From a virus, in IMG/VR virus record IMGVR_UViG_3300032144_000015, positions 1 to 50,919 of that record: a stretch of DNA of 50,919 nucleotides. The stretch is one strand, 5' to 3'. Position 1 is the first letter of the stretch. Every line of letters starts with the position of its first letter. Position numbers and translations under genes: made by a program. Of this stretch, positions 1,160-35,889 are shown in pieces. The notes under the pieces were generated by a model. It searched no databases and was not told the origin of the DNA. It saw nothing but the letters and a program-made list of their open reading frames with translations.

Positions 1160-1690
1160 ATGGCGAACATTATCAAACTACACCTTGGTTGTGGACCTCA
1201 TATTTTACAAAATTTTAAAAATGTAGACTTAATGCCGGGCCCTGGCGGCATTCAGTGGGACCTTCGGCAGGGAATCCAGGAGGAGACCGGGACTGTCGAC
1301 GTCATCTTTACCGAACACCTTATCGAGCACCTGAAACAGAGGGAAGGGGTTTTTTTCCTGGCCGACTGTTACCGCTGCCTGAAACCTGGGGGCGTGCTTC
1401 GCGTGTCGACGCCAAGCCTTAAAAGTCTGGTAAATGACTATCGCATGAAAAAACTGGATCGGTTCCGCGGAACCTGGGAACCCGAAACGCCGGCACGCAT
1501 GCTGAACGAAGCATTCCGGCTTTGGGGCCATGAGTTTTTATATGATATCGATGAACTAGTGAATGTCTTATACAGCGTTGGATTCGCGGAGGTCATCGAA
1601 CGGGATTGGCACAAAAGCCGGCACCTGGACCTTCAGAACCTCGAGGTAAGGCCTTACCGAAACGATCTGATCGTGGAAGCCACCAAATGA
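1160..1690 (+). CDS. Class I SAM-dependent methyltransferase
   Basis: 176 aa with GGAGG 9 nt upstream. Motif I LHLGCGPHILQNFKNVDL, then DVIFTEHLIEHL and LKPGGVLRVSTP, typical of the Methyltransf_11/23-like fold. Opposite strand to the surrounding head genes. Confidence 0.7.
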   Translation: MANIIKLHLGCGPHILQNFKNVDLMPGPGGIQWDLRQGIQEETGTVDVIFTEHLIEHLKQREGVFFLADCYRCLKPGGVLRVSTPSLKSLVNDYRMKKLDRFRGTWEPETPARMLNEAFRLWGHEFLYDIDELVNVLYSVGFAEVIERDWHKSRHLDLQNLEVRPYRNDLIVEATK

Positions 1691-2523
1691 CAAAGCACGT
1701 GATTATCGGCGCTGGAAACCTCGGCGCTTCCCTCGCAATTTCCCTAAGCGATAAAAACCCTTCGATGTATGACCGAAAAATTTTGGAAATTTTCCCACAA
1801 TTTCTTAGGCACCTTCGCCAGGATCCGCCGGATTTTCTGTGGTGGTGTATCGGAGGAGGCTATAAAAGAAACCTCGACGAGGAGTTGTCGAGGCGCTTAT
1901 CGGTAGAAATGCCCCTCGAATTACTCGACCAGGTTTCCCCAAGTACCAGCCTGGCCTTTTTTTCGAGTGCGGATTGTGTAGATTCATCCTATCCCGAAGA
2001 TCCGAGAAAGCGCAACAATAGTCCTGCACGCACCGTGTTCGCAAAATATAAGGGCCAGCTCGAGGGAATCATTATGTCGAGGCGTCGCCCACGGACCGCG
2101 GTCGTGCGCGTGTCGGAAATTTACGGAACCCACCGGCCGCTCGACACCTTTCCCGGTCGGCTGCTGTCGACCGCCTGGCCCGATCAGCCCCTCATATTTC
2201 CGAGTAACGAAATAACGCCGACGCCGAGCGATTGGCTGGCCGAGGTGCTCGTCAAGTGCCTGTCGGAGGGCCTGTTCTCGGAGGAGGGCGAGACTTTCCA
2301 CCACGCAGCCCCCTGGGGTTCTGTCTCTACGCTCCAGTGGGCTAAAATGATATTCGACTCCACAAAGCCAAATAAGGCCAGGGTAAGCTTCATCGAGCGC
2401 GTCTGCTGGAACGATAAACGGCCAAGGGCCTCGGCGCTCGGCTGCTCGCTGCCGCTGAAGGTTGACCACTGGTCCACGCTATGGCTGAAGCACTTTCGGC
2501 GCGAGGACTATCAGAAACCCTAG
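1687..2523 (+). CDS. NAD(P)-binding Rossmann-fold (SDR-like) protein, possible sugar-nucleotide epimerase/reductase
   Basis: ATG 1687 overlaps the upstream stop (ATGA). N-terminus is MTKHVIIGAGNLGASLAISL (a GxGxxG-type dinucleotide loop). Size (~278 aa) and the FAKYKGQLE segment fit RmlD/epimerase-like proteins, but no canonical YxxxK is seen. Confidence 0.45.
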   Translation: MTKHVIIGAGNLGASLAISLSDKNPSMYDRKILEIFPQFLRHLRQDPPDFLWWCIGGGYKRNLDEELSRRLSVEMPLELLDQVSPSTSLAFFSSADCVDSSYPEDPRKRNNSPARTVFAKYKGQLEGIIMSRRRPRTAVVRVSEIYGTHRPLDTFPGRLLSTAWPDQPLIFPSNEITPTPSDWLAEVLVKCLSEGLFSEEGETFHHAAPWGSVSTLQWAKMIFDSTKPNKARVSFIERVCWNDKRPRASALGCSLPLKVDHWSTLWLKHFRREDYQKP

Positions 2524-8196: not shown

Positions 8197-8442
8197 CTAC
8201 ACTCTCCTTTCGTAGCTATTTCGCGACAAAGGGTTAGTGTATTTCCTCCATGCCTTATTTTCGAGTTTTTTTAAGCAGCGCTTACAGTTGATTTCCGAAG
8301 TCTCTGAGAACAGCCAGCGCGTCTGGCGACGGCCAGGGGAAAGGCCGCAGGCCGATTGATAGAGGCGGACAGCATGATAGGTCGGGTGTTCACTCAGCAT
8401 GTCGAGCGTTCCCGTTCGGTATTCCTTATCCTCTACGCCCAT
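8197..8442 (-). CDS. Hypothetical protein
   Basis: 81-aa ORF whose ATG overlaps the end of the upstream glycosyltransferase gene. Contains CKRC plus an upstream Cys (possible small zinc motif). Confidence 0.45.
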   Translation of the reverse strand: MGVEDKEYRTGTLDMLSEHPTYHAVRLYQSACGLSPGRRQTRWLFSETSEINCKRCLKKLENKAWRKYTNPLSRNSYERRV

Positions 8443-9557
8443 GGATCGATCCTCGCCAGGCGCTCGATAATCTGGGCGCGTCTGCGGTTGATATTCGATA
8501 GCGTCAGGTTCTCGGCGATGAAATTTCGAGATTCCATAAGGAGCGCCTCGCGGCCGATATTTCCCGATAGAATGTGAAACAGCTTATTATAATAGTCTTC
8601 GCCGTTCTTATAGTTCACGATACCCGGCCGCTTCCATTCATCCCAGTCGGGCGCAAGACAGATCGCCCCTGCGTGGCAGGCCTCGATCCAGGCTATGTTT
8701 GATTTGCTTCGATTAAAAGTATCGTCGAGCAGCGGGACCTGCATAACATGGGGGCGGACGGCTGAAAGGTAATGCATGTATTCGATCACATCGAGGGCGT
8801 CCGTGACCTGGATTCGGTCCGATTCGATTCCGCGGTCTCTGAGATACTGAAGCGTCCCCCACCATGGCTTTCCCACAAAATTAAAGGTCCAGTCATGGCC
8901 GGCACGCTGGAAAGCGTTGGCCATGGGTGTAGTAAAAGCGGAAAGGTCCGAGTCATGCGTCGCCGAACCCCTCCAGAGGAGCAGCTTCAGCGGATCGGGG
9001 GCCGGTTTTTTCCAGGTCCGAAAGGAAAGGTTAAAGAGTTTTTCGTCATAGGCGTTCGGAACGAGTACGAATTTATCTGGATCCAGCTTCAGCCGGTCCT
9101 CCTCGGGAACCTCGTCGCCTTTCTTTTGCTTAAAGACGGTCTCGACGATATCCTGCAGGCGCTTTAGGAGATAGGGCGTCGACACCGAGACCATGTCGGC
9201 CTGCATAAGGAGGTGGACAATATTGTTCTGAACGTCCTTTCTCGAGTAGGTTGAGAAAGTCGGATTCTGCATGGGAACTGAAAACAGGTCATCGTCATAA
9301 TCCAGCCAGACCGGGCAGCCATTGGCCTTGGCCATTTTCATGATCCGGACGTGATCAGCTGTGAAGGGGCGCTGCATGAACAGACCGTCTATTCCAGCGA
9401 AGTAGGCCCATGTGATCGCGTTACTCATTTCGATTCTGATATCGTCGCCCAGCTCCTTTTGAAGTCTAAAGAGTGGGCCGGTGCCGCGATAGAACGAAGT
9501 GCCGTCCTGCGCGGGTATCTGAACGCCGAGACGAAACGGTTTACGGCCAGAATGCAT
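8433..9557 (-). CDS. Glycosyltransferase, GT-B fold-like
   Basis: 374 aa. Two Rossmann-like halves. The C-terminal half (LLLWRGSATHDSD... NRSKSNIAWIEACHAGAICLAP) resembles the donor-binding E/helix motif of GT1/GT4-type enzymes. Confidence 0.55.
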   Translation of the reverse strand: MHSGRKPFRLGVQIPAQDGTSFYRGTGPLFRLQKELGDDIRIEMSNAITWAYFAGIDGLFMQRPFTADHVRIMKMAKANGCPVWLDYDDDLFSVPMQNPTFSTYSRKDVQNNIVHLLMQADMVSVSTPYLLKRLQDIVETVFKQKKGDEVPEEDRLKLDPDKFVLVPNAYDEKLFNLSFRTWKKPAPDPLKLLLWRGSATHDSDLSAFTTPMANAFQRAGHDWTFNFVGKPWWGTLQYLRDRGIESDRIQVTDALDVIEYMHYLSAVRPHVMQVPLLDDTFNRSKSNIAWIEACHAGAICLAPDWDEWKRPGIVNYKNGEDYYNKLFHILSGNIGREALLMESRNFIAENLTLSNINRRRAQIIERLARIDPWA

Positions 9558-25221: not shown

Positions 25222-25473
25222 ATGAAAATTTCAGTCTATGATAACGAAGGACGGTTCGACAGATACACGATAGTCATCGAGGTGGGAATGCTCGTAGATT
25301 TCTACACTATGAGCAGTAACCCACTTGATAACGACGGTTTCAATCAATGGGTGGGTTCGAATAATAGCGACATGAAACTGAAGAAAGGAAAGCACCTCGG
25401 AAAAAATATCGGCTGGGACGGCGCGAACGATCAGATAAAACAGGCGATCCTGAATCACTTGAAAGGATATTAG
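25222..25473 (+). CDS. Hypothetical small protein
   Basis: Start re-picked to ATG 25222 (MKISVYDNEGRFDRYTIVI...). 83 aa. Confidence 0.5.
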   Translation: MKISVYDNEGRFDRYTIVIEVGMLVDFYTMSSNPLDNDGFNQWVGSNNSDMKLKKGKHLGKNIGWDGANDQIKQAILNHLKGY

Positions 25474-26528
25474 GACGACGGGCCAGGGACGGCCCCCAGC
25501 CATTGCTGCTCGATCTGATCTGCGATCCGCTGAATCATGAAGGGCGGAACGCTCATTCCACACAGATAAGCCGTCAGGATATTACTCGACACCTTAAAAT
25601 CCCGCGGGAAAGTCTGCAGTGAAAAATATTCTTCATTCGATAGATTTCGCATGCTTTCGAAATGAAACATCGTCCAGGCCGAACCCAGCAGCGTCGGCGC
25701 CGGGCTGTCGATCGGCAGCCTTAGCCAGGTAAAGCAGTAGCCCTTCGGATGGTAATCAGAAAAATAGTCGCCGGGCTTACACAGATCATAGAGGTGGGCA
25801 TGCTTCGAACCACTCTGATCCTTTCCCCTCGTCGTGATACCTGCGAAAGCTTCCTTCACAGAGATCTCAGGTTCCTCGAAATTCAATGCCAGATCAGAGA
25901 ACCCAAGGTCATCCCTGCGGGCGATGAAGAAAACCCGCTCGCGCCTCTGCGGAACGCCCATACGCGAGGCGTTCAGTAAAAACAGCTGGCAGGAGTATCC
26001 AGCCTTTCCGATCGCTTCGAAAATCTCCTTCACATAGCCCCTGGCGTTCCCGATTATGAGGCCCTTTACGTTCTCGGCCACGATGACCTTGGGACGAAGC
26101 TTTCCCGCCGTTTCGATGAAATGGAAAAACAGGTCATCGATGACCTGTTCGGCCTGGCCCTCGCGGAAGCGAAACTTAGTTCCCCATTTCCGTTCACGTG
26201 CGCCGGACATGCTGAAGCTGCTGCAGGGCGGCGAACCGTCGAGGATATCGAGGTCGAATAGCTGATCGGGCAGCCCCACGTCTGGAATGCGATTGAAATC
26301 CTGGATTCCCATCTCGTAGCTGAATTTGGGCTTATGGTTTTTGCGATAGATCTCCATCATGTCCTGATCGATCTCGACGCCCCCCAGCACATCAAAGCCC
26401 GCCAGCTTATAGCCCATGGTGGAACCGCCCCCGCCGTGAAAGCAGCTAAAGACTTTCAGCCCGTTCCTTGGAACTGTCTCGAGGTCGGCCAAGGTCCAGG
26501 GGCCATGTCTTAGCGGGGCGACCATCAA
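25470..26528 (-). CDS. DNA (cytosine-5)-methyltransferase
   Basis: 352 aa with motif I FSCFHGGGGSTMG, motif IV GSPPCSSFS, motif VI AENVKGL and motif VIII QRRERVFFIA, in the canonical order. Confidence 0.9.
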   Translation of the reverse strand: MMVAPLRHGPWTLADLETVPRNGLKVFSCFHGGGGSTMGYKLAGFDVLGGVEIDQDMMEIYRKNHKPKFSYEMGIQDFNRIPDVGLPDQLFDLDILDGSPPCSSFSMSGARERKWGTKFRFREGQAEQVIDDLFFHFIETAGKLRPKVIVAENVKGLIIGNARGYVKEIFEAIGKAGYSCQLFLLNASRMGVPQRRERVFFIARRDDLGFSDLALNFEEPEISVKEAFAGITTRGKDQSGSKHAHLYDLCKPGDYFSDYHPKGYCFTWLRLPIDSPAPTLLGSAWTMFHFESMRNLSNEEYFSLQTFPRDFKVSSNILTAYLCGMSVPPFMIQRIADQIEQQWLGAVPGPSS

Positions 26529-27214
26529 TTAAACTCGAAGCTGCACTTGGGGCACTTATGCCGAAATTCGGCGAAGTCCTCTTTTGGCAGTTCCTTCGAA
26601 CCCTGGGGCTGGCTGACGCTGGCCTCATAAGGCTGTCCCTCTGCCGGCCCTCCGCTCGGAATCGATTCGACCGCATAATTATGGTGGACTTCGGGCTGCT
26701 GCTGGGGAATCGACAGGTCCGGTTCCTGGCGAGGCGTCCAGCCGTCGAACCCGGTCATGATCTCGTCGATATTTTCCAGCTTAAACCCCGTCAGTTCGAG
26801 GTCGACCGAATCGCTGTCGATACTGTCGATAATTTTCTGAAGCTTATCGTTATTGAGAGTGCTCATACGCGCCAGCTGGTTATCGGCGAGGATATCGGCT
26901 AGCTCCTGATCCTCGCTGTCGTAATTTTGATAGTCGACAGGAACGACAGCCAGCCCCATTTCGAGCGCCGTGATCAGCGCGCCGTGGCCCTTGGTGATAA
27001 AGCCGGAGCGCTTCGATACCGTGATCGGCCGACGCCAGCCCTGATAGAGGAGGATATTTTTAAAAAACTCGATCTGCTCGGGCGGGTGTTCGTTCGGATT
27101 TTTCGGATGGTGTTTTAAAAGCTTCGGATCGACCTGGGCACTATGCTCGCACTCGATTCGAACGTACTTCGTTGGCACTTCAGCTTCGATGGTTTCCTCG
27201 GTTATCTGCTGCAT
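26525..27214 (-). CDS. ParB/Srx N-terminal-domain (ParB-like nuclease) protein with C-terminal zinc ribbon
   Basis: Start re-picked to ATG 27214 (TAATG overlap with the upstream stop). LLKHHPKNPNEHPPEQIEFFKNILLYQGWRRPITVSKRSGFITKGHGAL fits the ParB-N domain. The C-terminus has HKCPKCSFEF. Confidence 0.7.
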   Translation of the reverse strand: MQQITEETIEAEVPTKYVRIECEHSAQVDPKLLKHHPKNPNEHPPEQIEFFKNILLYQGWRRPITVSKRSGFITKGHGALITALEMGLAVVPVDYQNYDSEDQELADILADNQLARMSTLNNDKLQKIIDSIDSDSVDLELTGFKLENIDEIMTGFDGWTPRQEPDLSIPQQQPEVHHNYAVESIPSGGPAEGQPYEASVSQPQGSKELPKEDFAEFRHKCPKCSFEFN

Positions 27215-27528
27215 TAATTTTCCTCGAGACGGTGGGGTTTTTGTGGTGTCGTTGTCGGCTGGCAGGTATTTCCACAGACCGAAGGGCATACAACCTGCTG
27301 CTGGGGACAGATCGAAAAATATGAAACATTAGTCCCATCGACGACACGGAATACCCCGCAGCCGTCGATCGTAAGCAGCCGCACGATAGGGACGTCGAGG
27401 CCGGAGGCCCCCTTGACTATCGTCGTGGCGTTCGTTTCCTTCATGCAGCTAGTCGAGATCATGATCAGAAAAAACGCGCCCAGAATCACGGTAAAGATTA
27501 TCGAAGCGAATCGCATTTTCCACCTCAT
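27214..27528 (-). CDS. Putative lipoprotein / exported small protein
   Basis: 104 aa. The hydrophobic N-terminus ASIIFTVILGAFFLIMISTSC ends in Cys (lipobox-like). The mature part has several Cys. Confidence 0.5.
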   Translation of the reverse strand: MRWKMRFASIIFTVILGAFFLIMISTSCMKETNATTIVKGASGLDVPIVRLLTIDGCGVFRVVDGTNVSYFSICPQQQVVCPSVCGNTCQPTTTPQKPHRLEEN

Positions 27529-28070
27529 ACGATAATAGGCTTTATTCGACGGGCCTTTCGCCTGGGACTGCCAGCTTCCTTGGAATCGAATCCGTCGAGG
27601 TTTTCCACAGAATACCCGTCCATGTCGACGAGCACAACGGGGGAACCGGTTCGCGTCTGGATTTTCCGCTCGACGTCAGCCTTGGAAATGAATTTCCCGT
27701 CATCGCCCTTGGGCGAGGCCTCGACGAGGGCCGCGCGCTCGCGATAGGGGCGCCTTGGAATGAAATGATCGGGCAGTTCCAGCCGCACAATAGAATTCGT
27801 TTCAGGGACCGCCCAGCCCACCTGGACGAGAACCTGGGCGAAGGTCAGCCGGCGATCGGCGGGCCATTGCACGACACGGTCCAGTTCGAAAGTGGAATAG
27901 TATGTCTTTTTGCAGCGAAGAACGTCCAGACAAAGTACCGCGATTCGGCCGACGCCTAGAACGAAGCTGTCCCTGGACACGCCGAGATACTGCCTAAAAT
28001 CCTCTGCCTGGGTGATCTCGAATGATATTCTGACATGGTCATGTTTCACGCGGCGGTCTGCTGTTTTCAT
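27525..28070 (-). CDS. Hypothetical protein
   Basis: Start re-picked to ATG 28070 (MKTADRRVKHD...) so as not to overlap the divergent 28120 gene. 181 aa. Confidence 0.45.
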   Translation of the reverse strand: MKTADRRVKHDHVRISFEITQAEDFRQYLGVSRDSFVLGVGRIAVLCLDVLRCKKTYYSTFELDRVVQWPADRRLTFAQVLVQVGWAVPETNSIVRLELPDHFIPRRPYRERAALVEASPKGDDGKFISKADVERKIQTRTGSPVVLVDMDGYSVENLDGFDSKEAGSPRRKARRIKPIIV

Positions 28071-28119: not shown

Positions 28120-28995
28120 ATGGACCTATCTTTAACACGCCTTTCCACTGCACGCTGGGATGATCTGACAGAACCCCAGCCTGAGAACACAAAAACATAT
28201 CTCGAGCGTCATTTCCCGAACGTCGGGCTGGAACTGAGCGACTGGATCGACGACGGAATCCTGCGACTGGACTTCAGTAAAGACGAAGAATTCATGGCAC
28301 TGATCGACGACTACATCGCGGAGCGTTCGCAGCTTCCGAAGGATCGTTTGGCCCCAAATAATTTCTGGCACGGCTGGCATTTTCCGACGAGCTATCTCAT
28401 GTCGCCGGCTATGATGAATCTCGGTCTCTGCCGGCAGCTGTCGCAGTTTCTATCGAAGCTCTTTAACGAAAGCCCGCTCCTTCACCTGGCGCTGACAGGA
28501 TGGGTGTCGACGGAACGGAACTGGCACCAGGACAGTTACCTGAATCCGCCGAGTGTCTGGAGCGGCTATGCCGCGGCCTGGATCGCCCTAGACGATATCG
28601 ACGTCATGTCTGGGCCCTTCGAATACGTGCCGGGTTCCCATCGATGGGACGTGCTTCGGCGCGAAAAACTGTTCGGGTTCCTCGACGATCAGATCAGATC
28701 AAATCCAGACTGGCCCTCGATCACACAGGCCCACGTCGCGCGCGTATGCGAGAAAAAAATCATGGCCATGGACGCCCAGAGGAAATATTTCGTTCCTAAG
28801 AAAGGCGAGGTCCTCCTTTGGCATTCGAACCTGATTCACAGAGGAACTAAACCAAGGAATCCTGATCTCCTGCGAAAGGCCCTGATCCTGCATTATTCCG
28901 GGTTTTCCCGCCGAGTGGACATGGAACCGAAGGTCCGCTATGGTTATGGTTTTTACTTTAACGGTCCGACAGACGGATCAGTGAGGATGAAATGA
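28120..28995 (+). CDS. PhyH-like Fe(II)/2-oxoglutarate-dependent oxygenase
   Basis: 291 aa. HxD in NWHQDSYLNPP, a distal His in LLWHSNLIHRGT and Arg/Lys further on, spaced as in the phytanoyl-CoA dioxygenase family. Confidence 0.6.
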   Translation: MDLSLTRLSTARWDDLTEPQPENTKTYLERHFPNVGLELSDWIDDGILRLDFSKDEEFMALIDDYIAERSQLPKDRLAPNNFWHGWHFPTSYLMSPAMMNLGLCRQLSQFLSKLFNESPLLHLALTGWVSTERNWHQDSYLNPPSVWSGYAAAWIALDDIDVMSGPFEYVPGSHRWDVLRREKLFGFLDDQIRSNPDWPSITQAHVARVCEKKIMAMDAQRKYFVPKKGEVLLWHSNLIHRGTKPRNPDLLRKALILHYSGFSRRVDMEPKVRYGYGFYFNGPTDGSVRMK

Positions 28996-29207
28996 AACCG
29001 ACTATAGGACGGATTGTGCATTTTGAGGACGGCGCTTATGGAACATGCGCTGCTTTGATTACAAACGTCGATGACGAAAGCAGCGTAACGCTCGCTTTAT
29101 TTCGAAAATATCCGCCCATCGAGGATCAGGAACCTGTCGTCTATGTGAAAGCTGAATATTCGGACACGCCTGAAATCGGCCATTGGAGTTGGCCGCCTCG
29201 CATATGA
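28992..29207 (+). CDS. Hypothetical small beta-rich protein
   Basis: 71 aa. ATGA overlap with the upstream stop. Confidence 0.5.
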   Translation: MKPTIGRIVHFEDGAYGTCAALITNVDDESSVTLALFRKYPPIEDQEPVVYVKAEYSDTPEIGHWSWPPRI

Positions 29208-29419
29208 AGCTGTCCCGCCGTCGCCAACGCCTCCTTGGTTACTGGCGAGGAATGAGCCCCCAGCAGCGTGATTGGCAGCGGCTGATCGCGCTCGAGATTC
29301 CAGCTGGCGAATCGCATGATCCTGAAACTGAAACCGGCATGCTATGCCGAAAGCTTATCGAGGATTGGTTTAGGGAATCTCAGCAGGGCTTAGCGAAAGT
29401 CCAGGACAGCCAGCGTTAA
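29204..29419 (+). CDS. Hypothetical small protein (uncertain)
   Basis: ATG 29204 overlaps the upstream stop (ATGA). Its 3' end overlaps the convergent glycosyltransferase gene by 50 nt. Confidence 0.35.
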   Translation: MKLSRRRQRLLGYWRGMSPQQRDWQRLIALEIPAGESHDPETETGMLCRKLIEDWFRESQQGLAKVQDSQR

Positions 29420-30164
29420 GATAGCTTTCAAAATCGCCGCGCCATGTATCTGTATGTGAATGAAACCACTTATAAGCTACGTATTCTCTGTCATGTAAAT
29501 TTCTCAGCTCGTCACTTTCCCTGTAGTCGGGTAGTATTGCCCAGCGCTCGCTATTTCTCAATCGTGCCCACATCTCGGCTTCCAAGTGCCCGTAGAATGC
29601 CCTTGGTTCAGCCAGGAATCCGACAGCTTTTAACCAACCGTAGCGCCAGGCACAAACGGAGTTTGTCACTGCGGTTCTCGCCAGTCTCATTCTCAGATAC
29701 CCGTCTGCCACTGCTTCATCATACCCTCTATCCTCAATATCGGAAAGGCTGCGAGGATTACCGAGCGTACTCCACACGACGGCCTCGTGCGAATTCATTC
29801 CAGACCTGCGACCTTCGATCGCCCTGACGAGAGCCATGTCCCAGCCTTGATGAATCGGCAGTGAATCACCGTCGTAGCCGATCACGATATCGTTATTTCC
29901 GATAGAACCTATCTGTCCCATGGCCCAGTTGAAACCGTTATGCAGACCAAGGTTGCGTCCTGGACGGAGGATCGTGATCGGCAGATCCGCAGCGAGCGTC
30001 CTAAGGGTTCGATCGACCTCGGGTCTGTGCATGGGATAGCACTGATCGACGATGAAGTGCCCGCCCAGCTTAAGGTCCAGGTTGCGAGTAGAATGGAATT
30101 GTCTTAAAGATATGTCCAAAATCCCAGGATTGCAGAAAGCGAGCGTAATCGCGTAGACGCTCAT
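29370..30164 (-). CDS. Glycosyltransferase, GT-A (family 2-like)
   Basis: 264 aa. The N-terminal YAITLAFCNP, then NLGLHNGFNWAM and a DxD-like IGYDGDSLP, follow the usual GT2 motif order. No TM segments seen. Confidence 0.55.
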   Translation of the reverse strand: MSVYAITLAFCNPGILDISLRQFHSTRNLDLKLGGHFIVDQCYPMHRPEVDRTLRTLAADLPITILRPGRNLGLHNGFNWAMGQIGSIGNNDIVIGYDGDSLPIHQGWDMALVRAIEGRRSGMNSHEAVVWSTLGNPRSLSDIEDRGYDEAVADGYLRMRLARTAVTNSVCAWRYGWLKAVGFLAEPRAFYGHLEAEMWARLRNSERWAILPDYRESDELRNLHDREYVAYKWFHSHTDTWRGDFESYLNAGCPGLSLSPAEIP

Positions 30165-30273
30165 CGATGGCCCCCATGAATGCAGGATCGTCGGTGCACA
30201 TGCCTACAGTAAAGCCGATAAGAACCGCGATTAAAAGCCAGAACACGACACGGCTATTTTGTGGGAAGCTCAA
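30070..30273 (-). CDS. Possible small membrane-anchored protein (doubtful)
   Basis: 67-aa ORF with the hydrophobic segment VVFWLLIAVLIGFTVGMC. It overlaps the glycosyltransferase start by 95 nt in another frame. Confidence 0.25.
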   Translation of the reverse strand: MSFPQNSRVVFWLLIAVLIGFTVGMCTDDPAFMGAIDERLRDYARFLQSWDFGHIFKTIPFYSQPGP

Positions 30274-30664
30274 GTTTAGGCTCCTTATCGTCTCTGAACT
30301 GTTTTAGAAATTGGTGGCCGAGAACCTGAATAGCCCCAAGGGTATTGGAGTGCATAATCGCCGACTGCCAGTCGAATCCCTCGCCGCGGAGGACCGTGAC
30401 GCCTGTCAGCATGGAAAGGGACTGCACGATAAGCAGCTTATACTTGCCGGGCAGCCTAAGGAAGCGATCGCCGAAGAACATGATAATCGCCTGAACGGCA
30501 GCGATAGTCAGCCCGAAGGAGTTGAGGCCCTGATTACCCTTGATCGCCTGCATGAACACGTCCCATTCGTTCAGGGCGGCCGGATCCGTACCGGCGTAAA
30601 GCGCTATAGCAATGACGAATGGGGACGCGATAAGACATACGATAACCCAGAAAATCGGCTTCAT
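30254..30664 (-). CDS. Multi-pass membrane protein (holin-like or glycan-translocation-like)
   Basis: Start re-picked to ATG 30664 (MKPIFWVIVCLIASPFVIAIALYAG...). 136 aa with about 3-4 hydrophobic segments. Confidence 0.5.
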   Translation of the reverse strand: MKPIFWVIVCLIASPFVIAIALYAGTDPAALNEWDVFMQAIKGNQGLNSFGLTIAAVQAIIMFFGDRFLRLPGKYKLLIVQSLSMLTGVTVLRGEGFDWQSAIMHSNTLGAIQVLGHQFLKQFRDDKEPKLELPTK

Positions 30665-30707
30665 GGTGCACCTGCTAAAAAATGATTTAAGCTCTAAGGG
30701 GAATATT

Positions 30708-31289
30708 ATGGCATGGCTTGAAGAAAATGAACTACGAAAGTTTAAACGGGTTGGCCGCGGTGTTAAAATCAGCACAGGAGCTATTATCTACGGCGCAAAT
30801 AACATTGAGGTCGGCGACAATGTTCGAATCGACACCGAAACTGTTATTTTGGCTTCGCAAGGTTCGCTCAAAATTGGAAGCCATGTTCATGTGGCTGCAC
30901 GATGTTTACTCGCAGCCCGCGGTGGGATAAAAATCGGCGACTTCGCCGGCCTGTCCTTCGATGTAAAAGTCATCTCGGCGTCCGACGACGCCAGCGGCGA
31001 ATATCTCGTCGGTCCGCAGTTCCCTGATTTTTTCAGAAAGGTTGTAGCGGAGGAGACCGTGATTCGCGAGTACGCATTCATAGGCGCCGGCGCGACCGTG
31101 CTCGTCGGTGCGAATGTCGATCAGGGGGCTATGCTGGGGGCCAACTCCGTGGCACTGCCAGGCGAAACGCTAAAATCCTGGACGATATATTTCGGCGTTC
31201 CCGCCCATCGCATTCGCGAGCGAAAGCAGGATCTCATAGAGAAAAGCCTTGAAATGCATGATTGGTGGCAGAATAATCCTGATCTGTGA
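30708..31289 (+). CDS. Left-handed beta-helix (hexapeptide-repeat) acyl/acetyltransferase
   Basis: Start re-picked to ATG 30708 (AAGGGG RBS). Has consecutive hexapeptide repeats (GVKISTGAIIYGANNIEVGDNVRIDTETVILA...KIGSHVHVAARCLLAARGGIKIGDFAGLS). Confidence 0.8.
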   Translation: MAWLEENELRKFKRVGRGVKISTGAIIYGANNIEVGDNVRIDTETVILASQGSLKIGSHVHVAARCLLAARGGIKIGDFAGLSFDVKVISASDDASGEYLVGPQFPDFFRKVVAEETVIREYAFIGAGATVLVGANVDQGAMLGANSVALPGETLKSWTIYFGVPAHRIRERKQDLIEKSLEMHDWWQNNPDL

Positions 31290-31312
31290 TTTGAAAGAAC
31301 CTAGTGTTACTT

Positions 31313-31363
31313 AAAACCGGGTATCTCCTTTCCGGCACAGTTTTCGAGATTCCCGGTTTTTTT
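31313..31363. terminator. Bidirectional Rho-independent terminator between convergent genes
   Basis: Long hairpin aaaaccgggtatctc...gagattcccggtttt (31313-31360), flanked by an A-run on the left and T7 on the right. Confidence 0.65.
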
Positions 31364-31658
31364 AGTCCGACATGCCGTTTCCGTTTCCACCGTGTCCGCT
31401 AAAGTAGACATCCTTCTTCAGTAATAGATCCAGCTGCGCCTCGAGTTTCCCCAGCTGCTTATCGATCGCATGAACGCCCTTCATGTCTCGCCTGATTCCC
31501 TTCAGCTGATCGACGAATGTCGCTATTGCCGATTCGAGCTGCGTGGCTTTCTGTGAGGCAGTACGGGCTATTTCCTCGGTTTTATCGATTTTATCAATTA
31601 GTCTCTTGATGAAAAAAACGTTCACGGCCAGCAGTGTCGAGATCACAAAGGCGACCAC
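31362..31658 (-). CDS. N-terminally anchored coiled-coil protein
   Basis: 98 aa. TM segment VAFVISTLLAVNVFFI followed by heptad-like helical sequence and a Gly-rich tail. Confidence 0.5.
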   Translation of the reverse strand: MVAFVISTLLAVNVFFIKRLIDKIDKTEEIARTASQKATQLESAIATFVDQLKGIRRDMKGVHAIDKQLGKLEAQLDLLLKKDVYFSGHGGNGNGMSD

Positions 31659-31687
31659 AGAGACGATCAGATTTTGATCAATTGCCG

Positions 31688-32770
31688 CTATTCGCTTAGC
31701 CTTTTGACGATTGAATCGATATCGTGCGCAATCGCCAGCGCTGTATCAATCGTACAATCTGACGGCAGTCCGACGCAACGGCTGAACAGTGAGCACTTAT
31801 TACCCACAAATGGAAGCCTTTCGAATCCAGGCATGGAGGACAGAGGGATATAATATTGAGCAGCGATGAAATTATGAGCATACGCGGTTTTCTCGAATTC
31901 GCGAATGTCGATTCCTTCAGGCAGCGGGGCCACGCAGAGAGACAGATTCATCGAGGTCAGATCTCCGTCGTCAGACAGCAGCGCTGTCGAATAGATCCTC
32001 TGCAGGTTACGCCGGTGGCTTATCCGCTTATCGATTCGCTTCAGTTGATGGTGCTCCAGCTGCGCTGCGAGCACGGCAGAGGATAGCTCGCTTAGTTTAA
32101 AGTTGGTTCCTCCGTGATCGTAAATCATGCGATCCGGGTGGGTTCCAAAGTTGGATAAACATTTCAGACGGTCGGCCCAGCTTTGGTTTGGCAGGAGGAT
32201 CATACCGCCCTCGCCGATCGGAAGTGACTTCGTTGCATGGAACGAATAGACCGTCGCGAATTCATCGTCGTACTCGAAATCGCCCCACGCCCCGCAGTAA
32301 TCGAATATCAGATCGACGCGATATTTCCTGGCCATGTCCGCGTATGCGTCCCTGTCAATGCCGCGGCCGAATGGGTTTACGACGACGATGGTTCCGATAT
32401 CGTTCGTTCCGTCATTTGTGCGAAGGATGTATTCGAGTGTCCCAAGGTCCATGGCCCAGCTGCGAGGATCGCATTCGACCAGCCACACGTCCATGCCGGC
32501 GTTAAGAAACGGCAGGATCGTCCCTGCATGCGTGAAGTCGGGAACCAGAACCGTTTTCGTCCTGTCGATCGATCGCGTCAGGAGATCCAGCCCGGCTGCG
32601 CCAGATGAAACGAGGACCGGATTTTTTTTTCCGGTGATTTCTTTGAGCTCGTCCAAGCAGTGCTTATGCACCTCGCCGAAATTTGACCAGGTGCCCGATA
32701 GATAGCAGCCAGAAAGCCAGGAAGCTATCGAATCAGCATGCGGCATAAGTGGTTTTATTAGTGGGATCAT
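31688..32770 (-). CDS. DegT/DnrJ/EryC1-family PLP-dependent sugar aminotransferase
   Basis: Start re-picked to ATG 32770 (MIPLIKPLMP..., GAGG 7 nt upstream, 8 nt after the fibre stop). PLP-lysine motif SFHATKSLPIGEGG. Length is about 360 aa. Confidence 0.85.
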   Translation of the reverse strand: MIPLIKPLMPHADSIASWLSGCYLSGTWSNFGEVHKHCLDELKEITGKKNPVLVSSGAAGLDLLTRSIDRTKTVLVPDFTHAGTILPFLNAGMDVWLVECDPRSWAMDLGTLEYILRTNDGTNDIGTIVVVNPFGRGIDRDAYADMARKYRVDLIFDYCGAWGDFEYDDEFATVYSFHATKSLPIGEGGMILLPNQSWADRLKCLSNFGTHPDRMIYDHGGTNFKLSELSSAVLAAQLEHHQLKRIDKRISHRRNLQRIYSTALLSDDGDLTSMNLSLCVAPLPEGIDIREFEKTAYAHNFIAAQYYIPLSSMPGFERLPFVGNKCSLFSRCVGLPSDCTIDTALAIAHDIDSIVKRLSE

Positions 32771-32778
32771 GTTAAACC

Positions 32779-35700
32779 TCAAGCCCAAGTTGGTCGACTG
32801 TCTAACTCTACGTCACCAGAAATCGAAACGGCTGTATTCGCACTGCCTGCATTCGTTGCGAAGTTTATATTGCCAGTAGCCGATACAGTATTACATTGTG
32901 TTGGCGCTGCCGGGGTTCCGCCGAATAGCCAACCTGATATCGCTTGAGTAAACCCAGTCTTAAAAGTCACTCCAGGTATCGTAAATGTAGATGTGGTATG
33001 AGCTATGGAAGTCATCGAACCGACGAAATTGAATTTTATTCGGTGATTACCATCCTGATCCTGATAGTATATGAAAGCAGATCGAATCACACCCCAGCCA
33101 GCCAGCGTGCTCGTCGGAAGCTGATTTGTAACTTCGCCTTTCCTCGGAGCGACTAAGCCGGTTTCTACGGAATTTGCCTTTCCGAAACCGACGGGGGAAC
33201 TAGGGTTAGCCTTAACCAGACGATATCTGGTATTAGCTGTCATTCCTGACCATACACCGCCGCCAGCTGCACGGAATTTTCCGCGAATGATCGTATAGTT
33301 TCCGCTGTTATAATAGACACCAAGTCCAACATAGTTCGTTCCGTCGAATACGAGATCGCAGATATCAGCGCTAGGAAGCTTAAGCCAGGGACCGATACCG
33401 CCGGTTTGTATTTCGATACTGACGTCATCAGTGACTTGTTGCGGATTTATCCAGGGCTGAGCACCGATGAAAATCTGTTCATTAGTTCCGGCTGGCGTTG
33501 ACGTTGGAAGTACAGTCCCTTCGGGTCCTCTAACCGGAACGAAGGAGGAAAATCCTGTTGATAAATATTCCTGTTGAGCGCCAGCGCCGACGCTACTCGG
33601 CGTAGAGAATGTGGTTGTTTTCAGACCGCGAACAGAGATCCTTATGATATTACCAGAGGCCCATGTGAAAGGAACTGCAGCTGCATAATCGCTTTGATTC
33701 CTGACAACTCCAGTCTGCGCACCGTCTGTCTGCTGCATGGGCCTGAAGCGGATTCTATTCCCAGTAACAGTAACATCAGCTAAACCATAAGTTAGAAAGG
33801 TCCCATCGAATGCCTGTATCGTACCTTCGATATAATTCTGGCTGGCAGCGAATTGAAAATCGCCGCTCGGTATTTCCAACTCAAGGCTAGTCCCTGCTCC
33901 TGTCCATGCTGACGTAAGAGTGACGTTTACGCTTATATCTGCAGAATCACCTATCTGACGATACTCATAATGATTCTGAGTAAACGTAAAGGCTATGTTT
34001 CCTGATCCAGTTCGGAATGCCAGGCTTCCACCGGTCCTCCATGGTCCTCCTGAAAAACCTGATTGGCTTATTCCTGGGCCGATGTAGAAATCATCAAAGT
34101 AAGGGGCATAACCGAGTGCATTCGGTGTCGAGCAGTGAATGCATAGCCTATAGTTCACGCTGTTGCTTGTGGAAATGAACGTGATTCCATAAGCGTTATT
34201 CAATTTAGGAATCGGCGTTACGGATGGAGCGATAACCGCGCCCGTCGTCACGTCGACTATCCAAAAACTCAGATCACCGGCCGTGTAATTTGTGACGTCA
34301 GTTCCGAGCAGAACGTTAACGCCGATCATGCGGCCGACCTGCCGCCAGCCAAGGGGAATCGAGAACGATCTCGCCCAGCCCTGGCCCATGCGGTTCGCAG
34401 CGTCCTTGGTCATGACTGCCGAGACAGTTCCGTCGAGTGGGTTCGTTCCGGTCGCCAGGAAAGTAATATTCGCCGTTCCGCCGGTTCCAGTCTTTACCTT
34501 TCCCCTGACCATGGTTCCAGTGCCGTTCGTCGTCAGCGGCAGCGCAACGCCACCGGCCGTGGCCGACAGCTGGAAAGTAAGGCCGGTCGGATTTATCACA
34601 AAATAGAGGGTATTGATTACGATACCGGTCGTGCTGGTTATCGTCTGGAATGAAACGGTCTCGCCGGCAGCCGGCAGACCGGAAACCACGGTGACGAGAT
34701 CGCCGGCGTCAGTGAAGGTCACCGATTCCGATTCAGAGTAAGCCGCCCAGCTTTCAGGCACCGAACCAGGCGAGGACTGCTCGAAATTTCCATTCGTCAA
34801 AAAATTGACAGGGAAGTCCGAACCGCCGGGGCTGCCGCCCCCCTGGAGGATTCCGCGTGCGTCGAAAATGTCATGCTCGGTGATCGTGGCGCCGTTACTG
34901 GATCCGAGCAGCGAGAACGCAATGGGCTGGCCACTCGTTGGTATCGAGACGGATCCAGCGCCGGAGGCTGCCTGATCACGGATTCCGTTATAGCACTGCG
35001 CGCGCGTTCCAGCCGTCCCATAGCTGATCGATAGCGTGCTATCAGGGCGAAGGACTGTCGTCGCAACGATGAAGTTTCCGGCCGAAGGAACGCTCGGAGT
35101 GAAAGCGCTCGAGGCCCCGTCGCCGCCCGTAATGGCCCCGGTCTGAAAATTGACGAAGGTATCGTTACTGTTAAACGCGCCGGCCGGGGTTTTCGGGAAT
35201 ATCGCCCCTCGGTTATTCGCTGAGGCCTTGAACTGGCGCTGATTCCCACGCGCGGGGGCCAGCTGACTTGGCTTAATACCGAGGACCTGGCTGCTTAAAC
35301 GGTAAGGCCTGAGACGGTCATCGAACTGCGCCACGTTCTGAAGGTATGCCGAGTTTTTCGCGAGCGTGTCCCTGACGCTAAAGTCCATGTCCTCCATACC
35401 GATCACGGTCTGGCCCGGGAAGGTTCGAACGCCGACGATGACCACGTCATTCGGTTCGGTCGCGGGATATTCGGGGGCCGACGCGGCAGTTCCTGGAAGC
35501 GAGATCACATGCGAACCCAAGGTCGTTTTCAGAAACACCGTCTGGACCGGATTCGTCGGGTTCGTTATCGGGTTGGTATCTGTCAGGATCGGCCGCGCCA
35601 CGATCAGAGACCGCGTAAAGAGACTGCCGGTGGGCGCCGTAAAGCTTAGCGGAGTGTCGGCCGTCACGTTATGAAAATAGCCGCTCGCGCTTTTAGCGAG

Positions 35701-35889
35701 GCCTGCGCTGATAGTCAGGGCCATGGCCCCGCCCGTCGCCGGAATGAGGCCTGACAGGATCGATCCGTTCATCAGCCCCTCGAGCATGCCGGCCGGGTAA
35801 TCTCGCAGTTCGGCCTGGAACGAAGTCATGTCCGCCGCTAAAACCCGATACCGTTTAAACCAATTATAGATGAATGGGACCTGGGCCAT
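32779..35889 (-). CDS. Tail fibre / receptor-binding protein
   Basis: 1036 aa, Gly/Thr/Ser/Ala-rich and beta-rich. It is the last gene of the baseplate module, after the gp48-like gene. Confidence 0.7.
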   Translation of the reverse strand: MAQVPFIYNWFKRYRVLAADMTSFQAELRDYPAGMLEGLMNGSILSGLIPATGGAMALTISAGLAKSASGYFHNVTADTPLSFTAPTGSLFTRSLIVARPILTDTNPITNPTNPVQTVFLKTTLGSHVISLPGTAASAPEYPATEPNDVVIVGVRTFPGQTVIGMEDMDFSVRDTLAKNSAYLQNVAQFDDRLRPYRLSSQVLGIKPSQLAPARGNQRQFKASANNRGAIFPKTPAGAFNSNDTFVNFQTGAITGGDGASSAFTPSVPSAGNFIVATTVLRPDSTLSISYGTAGTRAQCYNGIRDQAASGAGSVSIPTSGQPIAFSLLGSSNGATITEHDIFDARGILQGGGSPGGSDFPVNFLTNGNFEQSSPGSVPESWAAYSESESVTFTDAGDLVTVVSGLPAAGETVSFQTITSTTGIVINTLYFVINPTGLTFQLSATAGGVALPLTTNGTGTMVRGKVKTGTGGTANITFLATGTNPLDGTVSAVMTKDAANRMGQGWARSFSIPLGWRQVGRMIGVNVLLGTDVTNYTAGDLSFWIVDVTTGAVIAPSVTPIPKLNNAYGITFISTSNSVNYRLCIHCSTPNALGYAPYFDDFYIGPGISQSGFSGGPWRTGGSLAFRTGSGNIAFTFTQNHYEYRQIGDSADISVNVTLTSAWTGAGTSLELEIPSGDFQFAASQNYIEGTIQAFDGTFLTYGLADVTVTGNRIRFRPMQQTDGAQTGVVRNQSDYAAAVPFTWASGNIIRISVRGLKTTTFSTPSSVGAGAQQEYLSTGFSSFVPVRGPEGTVLPTSTPAGTNEQIFIGAQPWINPQQVTDDVSIEIQTGGIGPWLKLPSADICDLVFDGTNYVGLGVYYNSGNYTIIRGKFRAAGGGVWSGMTANTRYRLVKANPSSPVGFGKANSVETGLVAPRKGEVTNQLPTSTLAGWGVIRSAFIYYQDQDGNHRIKFNFVGSMTSIAHTTSTFTIPGVTFKTGFTQAISGWLFGGTPAAPTQCNTVSATGNINFATNAGSANTAVSISGDVELDSRPTWA

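Follow-up and report, generated by a model that had tools for sequence, protein, structure and literature searches.

In Bacillus anthracis and Bacillus cereus, the anthrose pathway comprises the aminotransferase AntC, the N-acyltransferase AntD and the glycosyltransferase (GT) AntB, and its product, a 2-O-methylated sugar linked to a chain of rhamnose, is displayed on the exosporium glycoprotein BclA. Mimivirus, a eukaryotic giant virus, works with UDP-linked sugars. The fibril clusters of Mimivirus and other Megavirinae encode the dehydratase R141, the aminotransferase L136, the N-acetyltransferase L142 and GTs (PMC10117803; PMC8456856). The viosamine island of Pseudomonas syringae pv. tabaci, which groups vioA, vioB, vioR, vioM and vioT with fgt1 and fgt2, is involved in flagellin glycosylation and builds modified viosamine on protein-attached rhamnose (PMC3927599). 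In mycobacteriophages of clusters O and F, an O-methyltransferase and tandem GTs modify the capsid and the tail tube (PMC11600133, citing Freeman et al. 2023).

Here we describe a sugar module in an uncultured tailed phage of ~51 kb with a Mu-type baseplate (IMG/VR virus record IMGVR_UViG_3300032144_000015). The window analyzed is the whole record of 50,919 nt, considered a complete genome on the basis of a 127-bp overlap of its termini. We tentatively interpret the module as a late-expressed, phage-encoded system for nucleotide-sugar tailoring and transfer that would glycosylate a virion protein, the tail fibre being the leading candidate (probability about 45%).

Gene content of the locus

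A sequence-only reading of this DNA had counted at least seven carbohydrate enzymes. Six are well supported (Table 1), whereas a PhyH-like oxygenase and a multi-TM protein could not be confirmed as members of the sugar cluster.

Table 1. Features of the sugar module, its neighbours and its distant partners in the phage genome
Feature	Position	Strand	Basis or remark
Class I SAM methyltransferase	1160..1690	+	Pfam Methyltransf_11/23, weak
RmlD-like extended SDR	1687..2523	+	RmlD_sub_bind 2.4e-9; NCBIfam rmlD 1.7e-7, below cutoff
GT-B fold glycosyltransferase, GT4-like	8433..9557	-	phrog_7162 glycosyltransferase 4.5e-20
DNA-modification operon	25470..28070	-	181-aa gene, 104-aa gene, ParB-like gene, Dcm; outside sugar module
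Dcm-type C5 DNA methyltransferase	25470-26528	-	Pfam DNA_methylase; NCBIfam dcm 5.6e-37
ParB-like gene	26525-27289	-	PHROG ParB-like
PhyH-family Fe(II)/2-oxoglutarate dioxygenase	28120-28995	+	Pfam PhyH 6.3e-16
71-aa ORF	28992-29207	+	Same unit as PhyH (28120..29207)
Terminator-like hairpin	29334..29350	-	Just past GT-A stop; zone where GT-A and PhyH/71-aa ORF converge
Soluble GT-A fold glycosyltransferase, divergent GT2	29370..30164	-	AlphaFold and Foldseek
136-aa protein, 2-3 TM segments, charged C-terminus	30254..30664	-	TM prediction
AntD-like left-handed beta-helix (LbH) N-acyltransferase	30708..31289	+	AntD match; antisense to neighbours
98-aa protein	31362..31658	-	phrog_6179 (annotated unknown function); TM segment at residues 1-19
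DegT/DnrJ/EryC1-type PLP sugar aminotransferase, 360 aa	31688..32770	-	Pfam DegT_DnrJ_EryC1
Tail fibre, 1036 aa	32779..35889	-	PHROG tail fiber (weak match); follows Baseplate_J and Mu gp48
Phage genome	50,919 nt		IMGVR_UViG_3300032144_000015

The oxygenase does belong to the PhyH family, as first read, but its place in the sugar cluster is not secure: present in only 7 of 22 loci, it probably forms a separate divergent unit. In five genomes (this one, L003, L004, L053 and L054) it lies on the opposite strand, adjoining the operon headed by the 181-aa gene or its counterpart. That ParB-like/Dcm operon, directly next to the cluster, had been overlooked in the first reading; in relatives, Dcm is replaced by other DNA-modification enzymes. 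The hairpin that follows the GT-A gene is a consensus match only, the count of such sites in the region not exceeding the shuffled expectation.

The multi-TM protein of 136 aa has strong hydrophobic segments at residues 4-22 and 46-64 and a weaker third one read by eye. Its membrane nature stood, but its assignment to the sugar cluster did not, since relatives place its homologues in lysis cassettes: one lies two genes ahead of a GH108 endolysin with no sugar genes nearby (L030), and others adjoin Amidase_2 (L056, L009). The likeliest identity of the protein is a holin, its gene being interleaved with those of the sugar module, and not a sugar flippase. The 98-aa protein, in which the region after the N-terminal TM segment was read as a coiled coil, is possibly lysis-related, and its homologues follow the aminotransferase gene in L011, L012, L040-L043 and L053.

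Aminotransferase and N-acyltransferase

The predicted DegT-type aminotransferase is confirmed by a Pfam DegT_DnrJ_EryC1 match of 1.1e-38 (133.8 bits against a cutoff of 19.8) and by conservation of the PLP lysine; D157, S176, H178 and K181 are invariant in 27 members of its clade, which is found mostly on phage-sized contigs. Its best PDB relatives are 3ju7, WbpE, QdtB, the perosamine synthases and Mimivirus L136, the latter matching the clade at 1.6e-29. The hexapeptide-repeat transferase recognized earlier, for which Pfam Hexapep gives a weak match (2e-6), turned out to be AntD-like, with a full-length match (residues 6-180) to the AntD structures 3vbi-3vbp at 2.2e-27 and ~40% identity by our own count. 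PDB entry 3vbn is AntD (PMC6031040). AntD acts as a dTDP-4-amino-4,6-dideoxyglucose N-acyltransferase. The antisense orientation of the gene is kept in all 16 loci carrying the AntD type, and six loci devoid of it have a PglD/VioB-type N-acetyltransferase directly after DegT; the two types are non-orthologous replacements of one function.

The expectation that an aminotransferase and an N-acyltransferase would yield a viosamine-type N-acylated amino-deoxy sugar holds for DegT and the AntD-like enzyme. Beyond this the pathway is inferred: which sugar is made, which acyl donor is used, what the methyltransferase and SDR do and, most of all, which acceptor receives the sugar. The intermediate would be dTDP-4-keto-6-deoxyhexose, to judge from the RmlB-/RmlC-like genes that directly extend the module in relatives; it would come from the host or, in certain relatives, from these phage enzymes. 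DegT would add an amine at C4, which the AntD-like enzyme would N-acylate with acetyl-CoA or a short hydroxyacyl-CoA as donor. The SAM methyltransferase would probably O-methylate the sugar, the RmlD-like SDR may provide a second, rhamnose-like 6-deoxyhexose, and the soluble GT-A and GT-B would move the sugars in the cytoplasm onto a virion protein, the tail fibre being the first candidate.

Glycosyltransferases and distant partners

The GT-A product has no sequence match in Pfam, NCBIfam, PHROG or PDB. Its assignment, already made by the sequence-only reading, is borne out by the fold: the AF2 model (pLDDT 96.6) retrieves GT-A/GT2-type structures with Foldseek in PDB and BFVD at probability 1.0 and E ~1e-7. 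The protein founds a family seen solely on phage-sized contigs. A word search recovers 77 members and an exhaustive HMM search 470 representative clusters, and the family alignment has conserved columns NLGLH, YDxDS and YGHLE. By our own reading YDxDS would be the DxD motif of GT-A enzymes; D100 is invariant and D98 present in at least 90% of the sequences. More remote members are recognized by Pfam Glycos_transf_2 and carry fused sugar O-methyltransferase domains (Methyltransf_24, RMNT_CmcI or TylF).

The three remaining enzymes are encoded far from the module. The GT-B model (pLDDT 95.3) matches MshA, BshA, GlgM, PimA, PglA and GtfA in Foldseek, with SenB also among its relatives. The methyltransferase is a probable sugar O-methyltransferase, and its stop is overlapped (ATGA) by the SDR start, the true one probably being the ATG at 1687. 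Their early association with the module is upheld by the GT-A-methyltransferase fusions and by adjacency in relatives: methyltransferase homologues directly follow GT-A in L008, L010 and L016, the module is flanked by an SDR homologue in L004, L014 and L049, and in L009 and L013 a GT-B homologue is found 2-4 kb away from GT-A. Against the proposed pathway counts the SDR of this genome, which aligns a Phe with the expected catalytic Tyr.

Linkage to the tail fibre

Gene linkage is established by comparison of 23 distinct related loci. In 22 of them no more than ~4 kb separates GT-A, which is better conserved than any other module gene, from a DegT-clade gene, an LbH N-acyltransferase or both, a frequency judged to exceed chance. 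The loci bearing the module span two phage lineages. RmlB-/RmlC-like genes directly adjoin DegT-LbH-GT-A in L009/L047 and are also present in L013/L056 and L014/L049.

The claim that the aminotransferase gene starts 8 nt past the fibre stop proved exact: the TGA occupies 32779-32781 and the ATG lies at 32770, preceded by a GAGG that overlaps the stop codon. The two genes are probably translationally coupled. Several further features argue for a virion acceptor. In six genomes (this one, L002, L003, L012, L053 and L055) DegT starts 0-20 nt past, or overlaps, the last fibre-region gene, and in L056, an unrelated 104-kb phage, a 1702-aa fibre gene stands within the cluster, in the order RmlB, RmlC, fibre, 351-aa gene, DegT, LbH, GT-A. 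The module is also found alongside four DNA-modification cassettes, each different and self-contained: Dcm only (L002), DpdA with QueCDE (L004), ParB, 5mYOX, GATase, AADT and an apparent P-loop kinase (L012), and an N6/N4 methylase (L055). The absence of TM segments from the enzymes, and of Tet_JBP, ThyS and integrase matches from the complete genome, points the same way. Of the three targets first proposed, virion glycosylation is the best supported.

Other observations count against a virion acceptor. In many loci DNA-modification genes adjoin the module, and no motif or domain that might mark the acceptor was found to correlate with it. No isolate carries the module. BLAST and jackhmmer mapping resolves the fibre into a conserved N-terminal baseplate anchor of ~350 aa and a central domain (~460-680) common to fibres of 104-152 kb phages bearing the same sugar module; this domain is found in three lineages only.

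DNA as a possible alternative acceptor

The neighbouring operon raises a rather unlikely alternative, hypermodification of phage DNA, in which GT-A and/or GT-B would put the N-acyl amino sugar on a hydroxylated base: Dcm would make 5mC, PhyH, possibly with the ParB-like protein, would oxidize 5mC (or T) to a hydroxymethyl base, and the GTs would glycosylate that base before packaging. The sequence-only reading had set this aside for want of a hydroxylase; profile scans of the complete genome did find no Tet_JBP or ThyS homologue, but the dismissal was too quick. The ParB/Dcm operon lies less than 1.5 kb from the module. In several genomes PhyH is divergent from that operon, and in the loci seen PhyH (seven loci) and TET-like enzymes (three loci) are mutually exclusive. 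L050, without DegT or LbH, interleaves distant homologues of both GTs with DNA methylases, in the order N6 methylase, GT-B homologue, C5 methylase and GT-A homologue (34% identity). Phage GT-A and GT-B enzymes add hexose, HexNAc or heptose glycans to 5hmC (bioRxiv 2023.12.21.572611), ParB-like proteins activate phage 5mYOX enzymes (PMC13229309), and MshA-like top matches have also been reported for phage DNA-glycosylating GTs. Late expression equally fits post-replicative DNA modification (PMC13326640).

The clusters of DNA GTs dependent on a methyltransferase and 5mYOX (Pyle et al.) likewise have GT-A/GT-B near a C5 methyltransferase and ParB-like genes in a late/structural neighbourhood. However, this phage has neither 5mYOX nor ThyS, and its NLGLH, YDxDS and YGHLE differ from R...DDD...EDY/F, the motifs that have been reported in DNA GT-As. 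The nearest PDB sequences to PhyH (GriE, EvdO2, MysH and SnoK) are small-molecule oxygenases, with no nucleic-acid oxygenase among them. In L002, L007, L009, L013 and L055 the flanks fetched around the module contain no dioxygenase; the 5hmU of L012 is already served by its complete AADT, GATase and kinase cassette; and in L004 the module accompanies 7-deazaguanine genes, which provide no hydroxyl group to receive a sugar. The mildly acidic median pI of the GT-A and GT-B families (6.2 and 6.5) is a weak argument against DNA as well. We know of no amino-deoxy or O-methyl sugar on DNA.

Host glycans and other cytoplasmic acceptors

N-acyl-4-amino-4,6-dideoxyhexoses are typical O-antigen sugars, and phage genes modifying the O-antigen often adjoin tail fibre or tailspike genes. 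Along these lines the module could place its sugar on O-antigen, capsule or core at the cytoplasmic face, diverting host dTDP-sugar pools and masking receptors against superinfection or loss of progeny on debris; GT2- and GT4-type enzymes, to which Foldseek relates GT-A and GT-B, are the usual O-unit transferases. This remodelling, which had been proposed from the start, is weakened to the point of being improbable. All profile scans of the genome returned no integrase, recombinase or transposase match, and no repressor was identified, small ORFs being scanned in part. A search of 185,579 species-representative genomes gave no relative of the GT-A family, hence no prophage copy was seen. None of the module enzymes has a TM segment, no GtrA-, Wzx-, GT-C- or Acyltransf_3-type protein accompanies them, and the sole multi-TM protein is holin-like. 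Coupling to the last late gene would moreover leave freshly made glycan little time to reach the surface before lysis.

Solubility of the enzymes, and the presence of the small-molecule GTs MshA, BshA and SenB among the GT-B relatives, would also suit another cytoplasmic acceptor, a host protein or small molecule, or a drain of dTDP-sugars crippling host envelope synthesis. We consider this very unlikely: a drain would make two conserved transferases and a methyltransferase needless, and the conserved position after fibre genes in two phage lineages would stay unexplained.

Comparison with known systems and implications

The phage shares with the anthrose pathway the AntD relationship, a DegT enzyme, a GT2-like transferase, a methyltransferase and, in relatives, RmlB/C/D-like genes, but its system is phage-encoded, its GT-A forms a separate family unrecognized by Pfam, and no homologue of the enoyl-CoA hydratase AntA was seen in the phage. 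The likeness to the viosamine island lies in the inventory of functions (aminotransferase, N-acyltransferase, reductase, methyltransferase and dedicated transferases); the phage SDR is RmlD-like and not obviously a VioR-type acyl reductase, and the proposed target is a virion protein instead of flagellin. Mimivirus also encodes a viosamine-/bacillosamine-type pathway for N-acetylated amino-deoxy sugars and uses the product on its own fibrils, whereas AntD and the RmlB/C context point to dTDP-linked sugars in a tailed phage. To our knowledge, mycobacteriophages with virion glycosylation have not been described as encoding nucleotide-sugar tailoring enzymes. They too combine GTs and an O-methyltransferase beside structural and lysis genes, acting on virion proteins in the cytoplasm (PMC11600133), but the present phage, of a different lineage and with no sequence relatives among 50,697 deposited phage records, has its own aminotransferase and N-acyltransferase, and its relatives RmlB and RmlC.

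The chemistry being well supported by sequence analysis, this phage appears to equip itself to make and attach a rare N-acylated amino sugar with enzymes encoded directly after its tail-fibre gene. If a virion protein is indeed the acceptor, the particle would carry a bacterial-type glycan, like the anthrose-rhamnose of BclA or the modified viosamine-rhamnose of Pseudomonas syringae flagellin.

The predicted amino-sugar enzymes

Every ORF of the sequence-only reading is present at its assigned coordinates, and the features discussed here are collected in the table. The aminotransferase that it had placed 8 nt after the tail-fibre stop indeed begins there, with its ATG preceded by a GAGG that overlaps the fibre stop codon, and it belongs to the DegT family (133.8 bits against PF01041, cutoff 19.8; matches in PDB sequences from 1e-43 to 1e-29). 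The proteins nearest to it, 345-365 aa long, group in a clade of their own, mostly from contigs of 40-57 kb. In 27 members of this clade D157, S176, H178 and K181 do not vary, and the PLP lysine (SxHxxK) is thus retained; in this family these positions include the PLP lysine and the aspartate contacting the pyridine N. A lysine at the PLP site marks an aminotransferase and not a dehydratase. The NCBIfam equivalogs PseC, LegC, DesI, WecE and ArnB all scored far under their cutoffs with the window protein (PseC, 91.9 against 423.5).

Coordinates of the features discussed, in the window unless a related locus (L) is named
Feature	Position	Strand	Basis or remark
SAM methyltransferase	1160-1690	+	Pfam
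RmlD-like SDR	up to 2523, start probably ATG at 1687	+	Pfam
GT-B	8433-9557	-	PHROG, AlphaFold/Foldseek
Dcm C5 cytosine methyltransferase	25470-26528	-	
ParB-like gene	26525-27289	-	
ParB-linked slot	25470-28070	-	
ParB-linked slot, L004	12654-16973		
ParB-linked slot, L012	15144-19110		
ParB-linked slot, L010	14264-15716		
ParB-linked slot, L032	19112-20840		
PhyH	28120-28995	+	Pfam PhyH family
GT-A	29370-30164	-	AlphaFold/Foldseek fold match
136-aa membrane protein	30254-30664	-	2-3 TM segments; charged C-terminus read from translation
LbH AntD-like N-acyltransferase	30708-31289	+ (opposite to neighbours)	full-length AntD homology
98-aa TM protein, coiled-coil-like	31362-31658	-	interleaved with sugar genes
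DegT aminotransferase	31688-32770	-	Pfam PF01041, 1.1e-38

The gene that had been read as a hexapeptide-repeat acetyltransferase encodes a left-handed beta-helix (LbH) enzyme whose residues 6-180 align with residues 24-196 of the 205 of AntD (2.2e-27, about 40% identity), and the DDxSG...GP loop motif of AntD is conserved in it as DDaSG..lvGP. AntD is the dTDP-4-amino-4,6-dideoxyglucose N-acyltransferase of the Bacillus cereus anthrose pathway.

The window glycosyltransferase has no match in Pfam, NCBIfam, PHROGs or PDB sequences. An AlphaFold model built from a 57-sequence alignment (pLDDT 96.6) nevertheless predicts a GT-A Rossmann-like fold, in agreement with the call made from the sequence. 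Foldseek matched the model with probability 1.0 to GalNAc-Ts, PcManGT, SpsA, TarS and AvpGT in the PDB (TM about 0.5-0.6) and, with the same probability, to GT2-like phage proteins in BFVD (TM up to 0.72). A putative DxD lies in the motif YDGDS (YDxDS); all 57 sequences have D100, and at least 90% of them D98. An exhaustive profile search extended the family to 470 representative clusters at 50% identity; most of the 150 listed have a single domain and a length of about 230-265 aa. In some members the enzyme is joined to a Methyltransf_24, RMNT_CmcI (rhamnosyl O-methyltransferase) or TylF domain, and two distant ones match Pfam Glycos_transf_2 (P0446, 44.2 bits; P0426, 24.4 bits; cutoff 23.3). 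The members found by word search have no precomputed Pfam domains, and hardly any has a name; this GT2-like group is an unannotated enzyme family.

Profile or fold matches also upheld the three enzyme calls outside this interval, namely the methyltransferase/SDR pair and the GT-B. PDB sequence searches with GT-A, SDR and GT-B gave nothing useful. The methyltransferase and SDR genes overlap by ATGA, and the window SDR has Phe at the catalytic Tyr position (FAKYK against YARIR/YALSK of its homologues in the related loci L004 and L014). The pair is inserted on the plus strand, with a Mu F-like gene (206-1126) on one side and the portal gene (2864-4438) on the other, both on the minus strand.

Genome and relatives

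The two ends of the window overlap exactly over 127 bp (1-127 and 50793-50919), which identifies it as a complete, circularly assembled phage genome with a true size of about 50,792 bp. Its head and baseplate genes are of the Mu type (Mu F, Mu portal, DNA_circ_N, GpP, Baseplate_J and gp48), it also encodes RecT and Gp157, and a search for tRNA genes found none. The tail fibre is encoded at 32779-35889, the sheath at 44385-45578 and the major capsid protein at 47931-49013. The sequence comes from Logan contig SRR9694932_10716. No scanned ORF of the window matched an integrase, a transposase, Tet_JBP or a thymidylate synthase, and a promoter and terminator scan of the region gave site counts not above the shuffled expectation. 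No close relative was found among 50,697 deposited phage records, and megablast with 8 kb of the window returned no isolated relative. Baseplate J is 28-30% identical to that of the Mu-like phages SuMu and 3927AP2, DegT has only remote matches in deposited phages (25-26% identity), and tblastn with GT-A against the 50,697 records gave no match. Searched for prophage or host copies with a GT-A profile, 185,579 genomes yielded zero matches.

Conservation was assessed on 57 related locus records fetched from viral, metagenome and assembly collections (labelled L with a number), with window homologues located among all their ORFs; 23 distinct loci remain when duplicates and records with too little flanking sequence are set aside. 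In 22 of these 23, a DegT-clade gene and/or an LbH N-acyltransferase is found no more than about 4 kb from GT-A. The AntD-type LbH is present in 16 loci, in every one antisense to its neighbours, and in six others its place is taken by a PglD/VioB/NeuD-type acetyltransferase directly 3' of DegT on the same strand, a non-orthologous displacement of one function. The enzymes that lie apart in the window are found beside the module elsewhere: the methyltransferase homologue directly 3' of GT-A (L008, L010, L016), the SDR homologue adjoining the module (L004, L014, L049) and the GT-B homologue 2-4 kb from it (L009, L013). The cluster additionally includes genes for an RmlB-like 4,6-dehydratase and an RmlC-like protein in phages of 104 kb (L056/L013) and 152 kb (L009/L047) and in L014/L049; these neighbours give indirect support to dTDP-4-amino-4,6-dideoxyglucose as the predicted LbH substrate.

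From this linkage we infer that the six enzymes dispersed in the window form one network around dTDP-6-deoxyhexose chemistry. Both the enzymology and the linkage are solid, and we put the probability that the genes constitute a dTDP-amino-sugar tailoring and transfer module at about 80%.

A Glyco_transf_9 gene is located directly upstream of DegT in L054 (5451-6464) and also in L011, L016 and L040; this heptosyltransferase family comprises LPS heptosyltransferases and enzymes glycosylating autotransporter adhesins. Near the module of the 104-kb phage L056 (12937-13746 and 15960-19947) are genes for DnaJ, a CobT/VWA and AAA_5 (CbbQ-like) pair and a histone-deacetylase-family protein.

A fibre domain that would track the module was sought and rejected. 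Fibre residues ~460-680 (about 33850-34510) form a domain that the window shares only with the fibres of L009 (17514-20330) and L013 (3834-8942), in the latter duplicated; these belong to phages of 104-152 kb with the same sugar module. The domain is absent from all other relatives that have a Mu-type baseplate, and the remaining fibre segments are unique to the window. The shared domain suggests exchange between phages, which may share a host or receptor.

Membrane proteins and lysis genes

The multi-TM protein that the sequence-only reading had assigned to the sugar cluster probably does not belong there. Computed to have 2-3 TM segments and devoid of any Pfam match, this 136-aa protein has a homologue in L030, a locus without sugar genes, flanked by a coiled-coil protein and a GH108 endolysin, and others adjoining an Amidase_2 endolysin in L056 and L009. 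Its features fit a holin, and the lysis cassette and sugar genes are interleaved at the late operon end. At the corresponding place the relatives encode SLT, GH108, Amidase_2 or NlpC/P60-like endolysins; homology to the SLT, GH108, Amidase_2 and NlpC enzymes of relatives revealed no endolysin in the complete window, nor was a recognizable endolysin or spanin found in it.

A small TM protein beside a GT2-like enzyme could also recall an undecaprenyl-phosphate (Und-P) sugar system of the GtrA/GtrB or Arn type. This candidate was rejected because the TM protein occurs in a lysis cassette without sugar genes (L030) and beside Amidase_2 in L056, and because GT-A has no TM segment. Such a system comprises a small multi-TM flippase (GtrA or ArnE/F), a membrane-anchored GT2 and a periplasmic GT-C; no GT-C-like ORF was found in the window.

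PhyH and the ParB-linked slot

The PhyH gene had likewise been counted in the sugar cluster. It encodes a genuine PhyH-family protein, whose nearest solved relatives are small-molecule oxygenases, but its membership of the cluster did not stand. Only 7 of the 22 module loci have it, and in L003, L011, L053 and L054 it lies 3-5 kb from GT-A. Together with a 71-aa partner it makes up a separate plus-strand unit, convergent with GT-A and divergent from the operon of the 181-aa, 104-aa, ParB-like and Dcm genes, and it is found on the strand opposite to this operon, beside it, in the window, L003, L004, L053 and L054. PhyH was on these grounds rejected as a core sugar-tailoring enzyme; it may have a DNA-related role.

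The adjacency of a C5 cytosine methyltransferase and a ParB-like gene, as in the window, is a trait of phage MT/5mYOX- or ThyS-dependent DNA-glycosylation clusters. Pfam scans of the complete genome detected no TET/JBP 5mYOX or ThyS homologue, and a TET HMM built from relatives gave no match in the window at a threshold as loose as E = 10, in keeping with the earlier remark that no hydroxymethyl-pyrimidine-forming enzyme was to be seen. L002 and L016 have the same partner for the ParB-like gene as the window, Dcm; in L008, L010, L012 and L032 the partner is a TET/JBP-type dioxygenase (5mYOX), and in L004 it is DpdA with QueC, QueD, QueE and FolE. In L012 the ParB-like gene is accompanied by 5mYOX, GATase, AADT (PF18724, 1.9e-19), an apparent GNAT and an apparent P-loop kinase; together they make up the complete thymidine-hypermodification equipment known for ParB-dependent T-dioxygenases (PMC13229309). 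In L032, with ParB and TET, the sugar module is absent from the 10 kb after the baseplate genes. Close relatives appear to swap whole anti-restriction cassettes at one position headed by the ParB-like gene, which is also the relative position of mom in phage Mu.

Candidate acceptors of the sugar

None of the six enzymes has a TM segment, which points to a cytoplasmic acceptor. A virion protein is our tentative choice, at a little under even odds. Gene order argues for it: in most genomes the DegT gene is coupled to the final gene of the fibre region or overlaps it, and in the unrelated large phage L056 a 1702-aa fibre gene is located inside the cluster, between RmlB/RmlC and DegT/LbH/GT-A. By analogy, the predicted sugar type would resemble known protein glycans, among them the anthrose-rhamnose on BclA. 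A modified viosamine-rhamnose is present on P. syringae flagellin (PMC3927599), and Mimivirus fibrils carry comparable protein glycans (PMC10117803, PMC8456856). [quoted passage not shown] What defines systems of the mycobacteriophage and Mimivirus type is a glycan that is attached to virion proteins and depends on the viral genes; for the window phage, gene context suggests one.

DNA is an unlikely acceptor, although the module is near ParB and Dcm and although PhyH (7 loci) and the TET-like gene (3 loci) were mutually exclusive in the loci seen. A further point in its favour comes from the distant locus L050 (6493-10392), where homologues of GT-B and GT-A alternate with DNA methylases in a tight run, in the order N6/N4 methylase, GT-B, C5 methylase, GT-A. 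This high-GC contig of 67.8 kb, in which the run follows a DUF927 primase and neither DegT nor LbH is present, is the sole locus tying the GT-A and GT-B families to DNA methylases. Against DNA, the complete genome is devoid of TET and ThyS, and the module co-occurs with DNA-modification cassettes that give no hydroxyl acceptor or already consume one. The GT-A motifs also appear to differ from those reported for DNA GT-As: the conserved columns, read by eye, are NLGLH, YDxDS and YGHLE, against the R...DDD...EDY/F of JGT/TarP-like enzymes, and TarP is absent among the best 50 PDB structure matches. The paper on phage 5-hydroxycytosine arabinosylation makes no mention of aminotransferases or dioxygenases. 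One particular form of DNA modification is more doubtful still, namely that PhyH, a non-TET enzyme beside ParB/Dcm, would hydroxylate 5mC or T, and that GT-A and GT-B would then add an N-acylated, possibly O-methylated 4-amino-4,6-dideoxyhexose.

The remodelling of a host glycan is improbable, since no lysogeny genes were detected in the window, no prophage copies in the 185,579 genomes and no membrane machinery. Other acceptors rank last in likelihood.

Biological significance

The ParB-linked locus, swapping Dcm, 5mYOX/AADT and DpdA/Que among close relatives, is a clear case of modular anti-restriction evolution. The choice between virion and DNA makes the sugar module a compact system for separating virion glycosylation from DNA glyco-hypermodification, both of them active fields; should the PhyH/GT hypermodification be true, it would give both the first example of an amino-deoxy sugar on DNA and the first DNA base oxygenase of the PhyH type. 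The module is a new form of virus-encoded glycosylation machinery around an unannotated GT2-like family. Provided that the virion is the target, the tailed phages of this lineage would have a nucleotide-amino-sugar pathway of their own with which to coat the particle, or the fibre, in a glycan of bacterial type. To our knowledge, only giant viruses have so far been shown to do this; the virion glycosylation of mycobacteriophages has been described through an O-methyltransferase and GTs. Such a coat could influence host range and stability, recognition by the immune system, and phage engineering.
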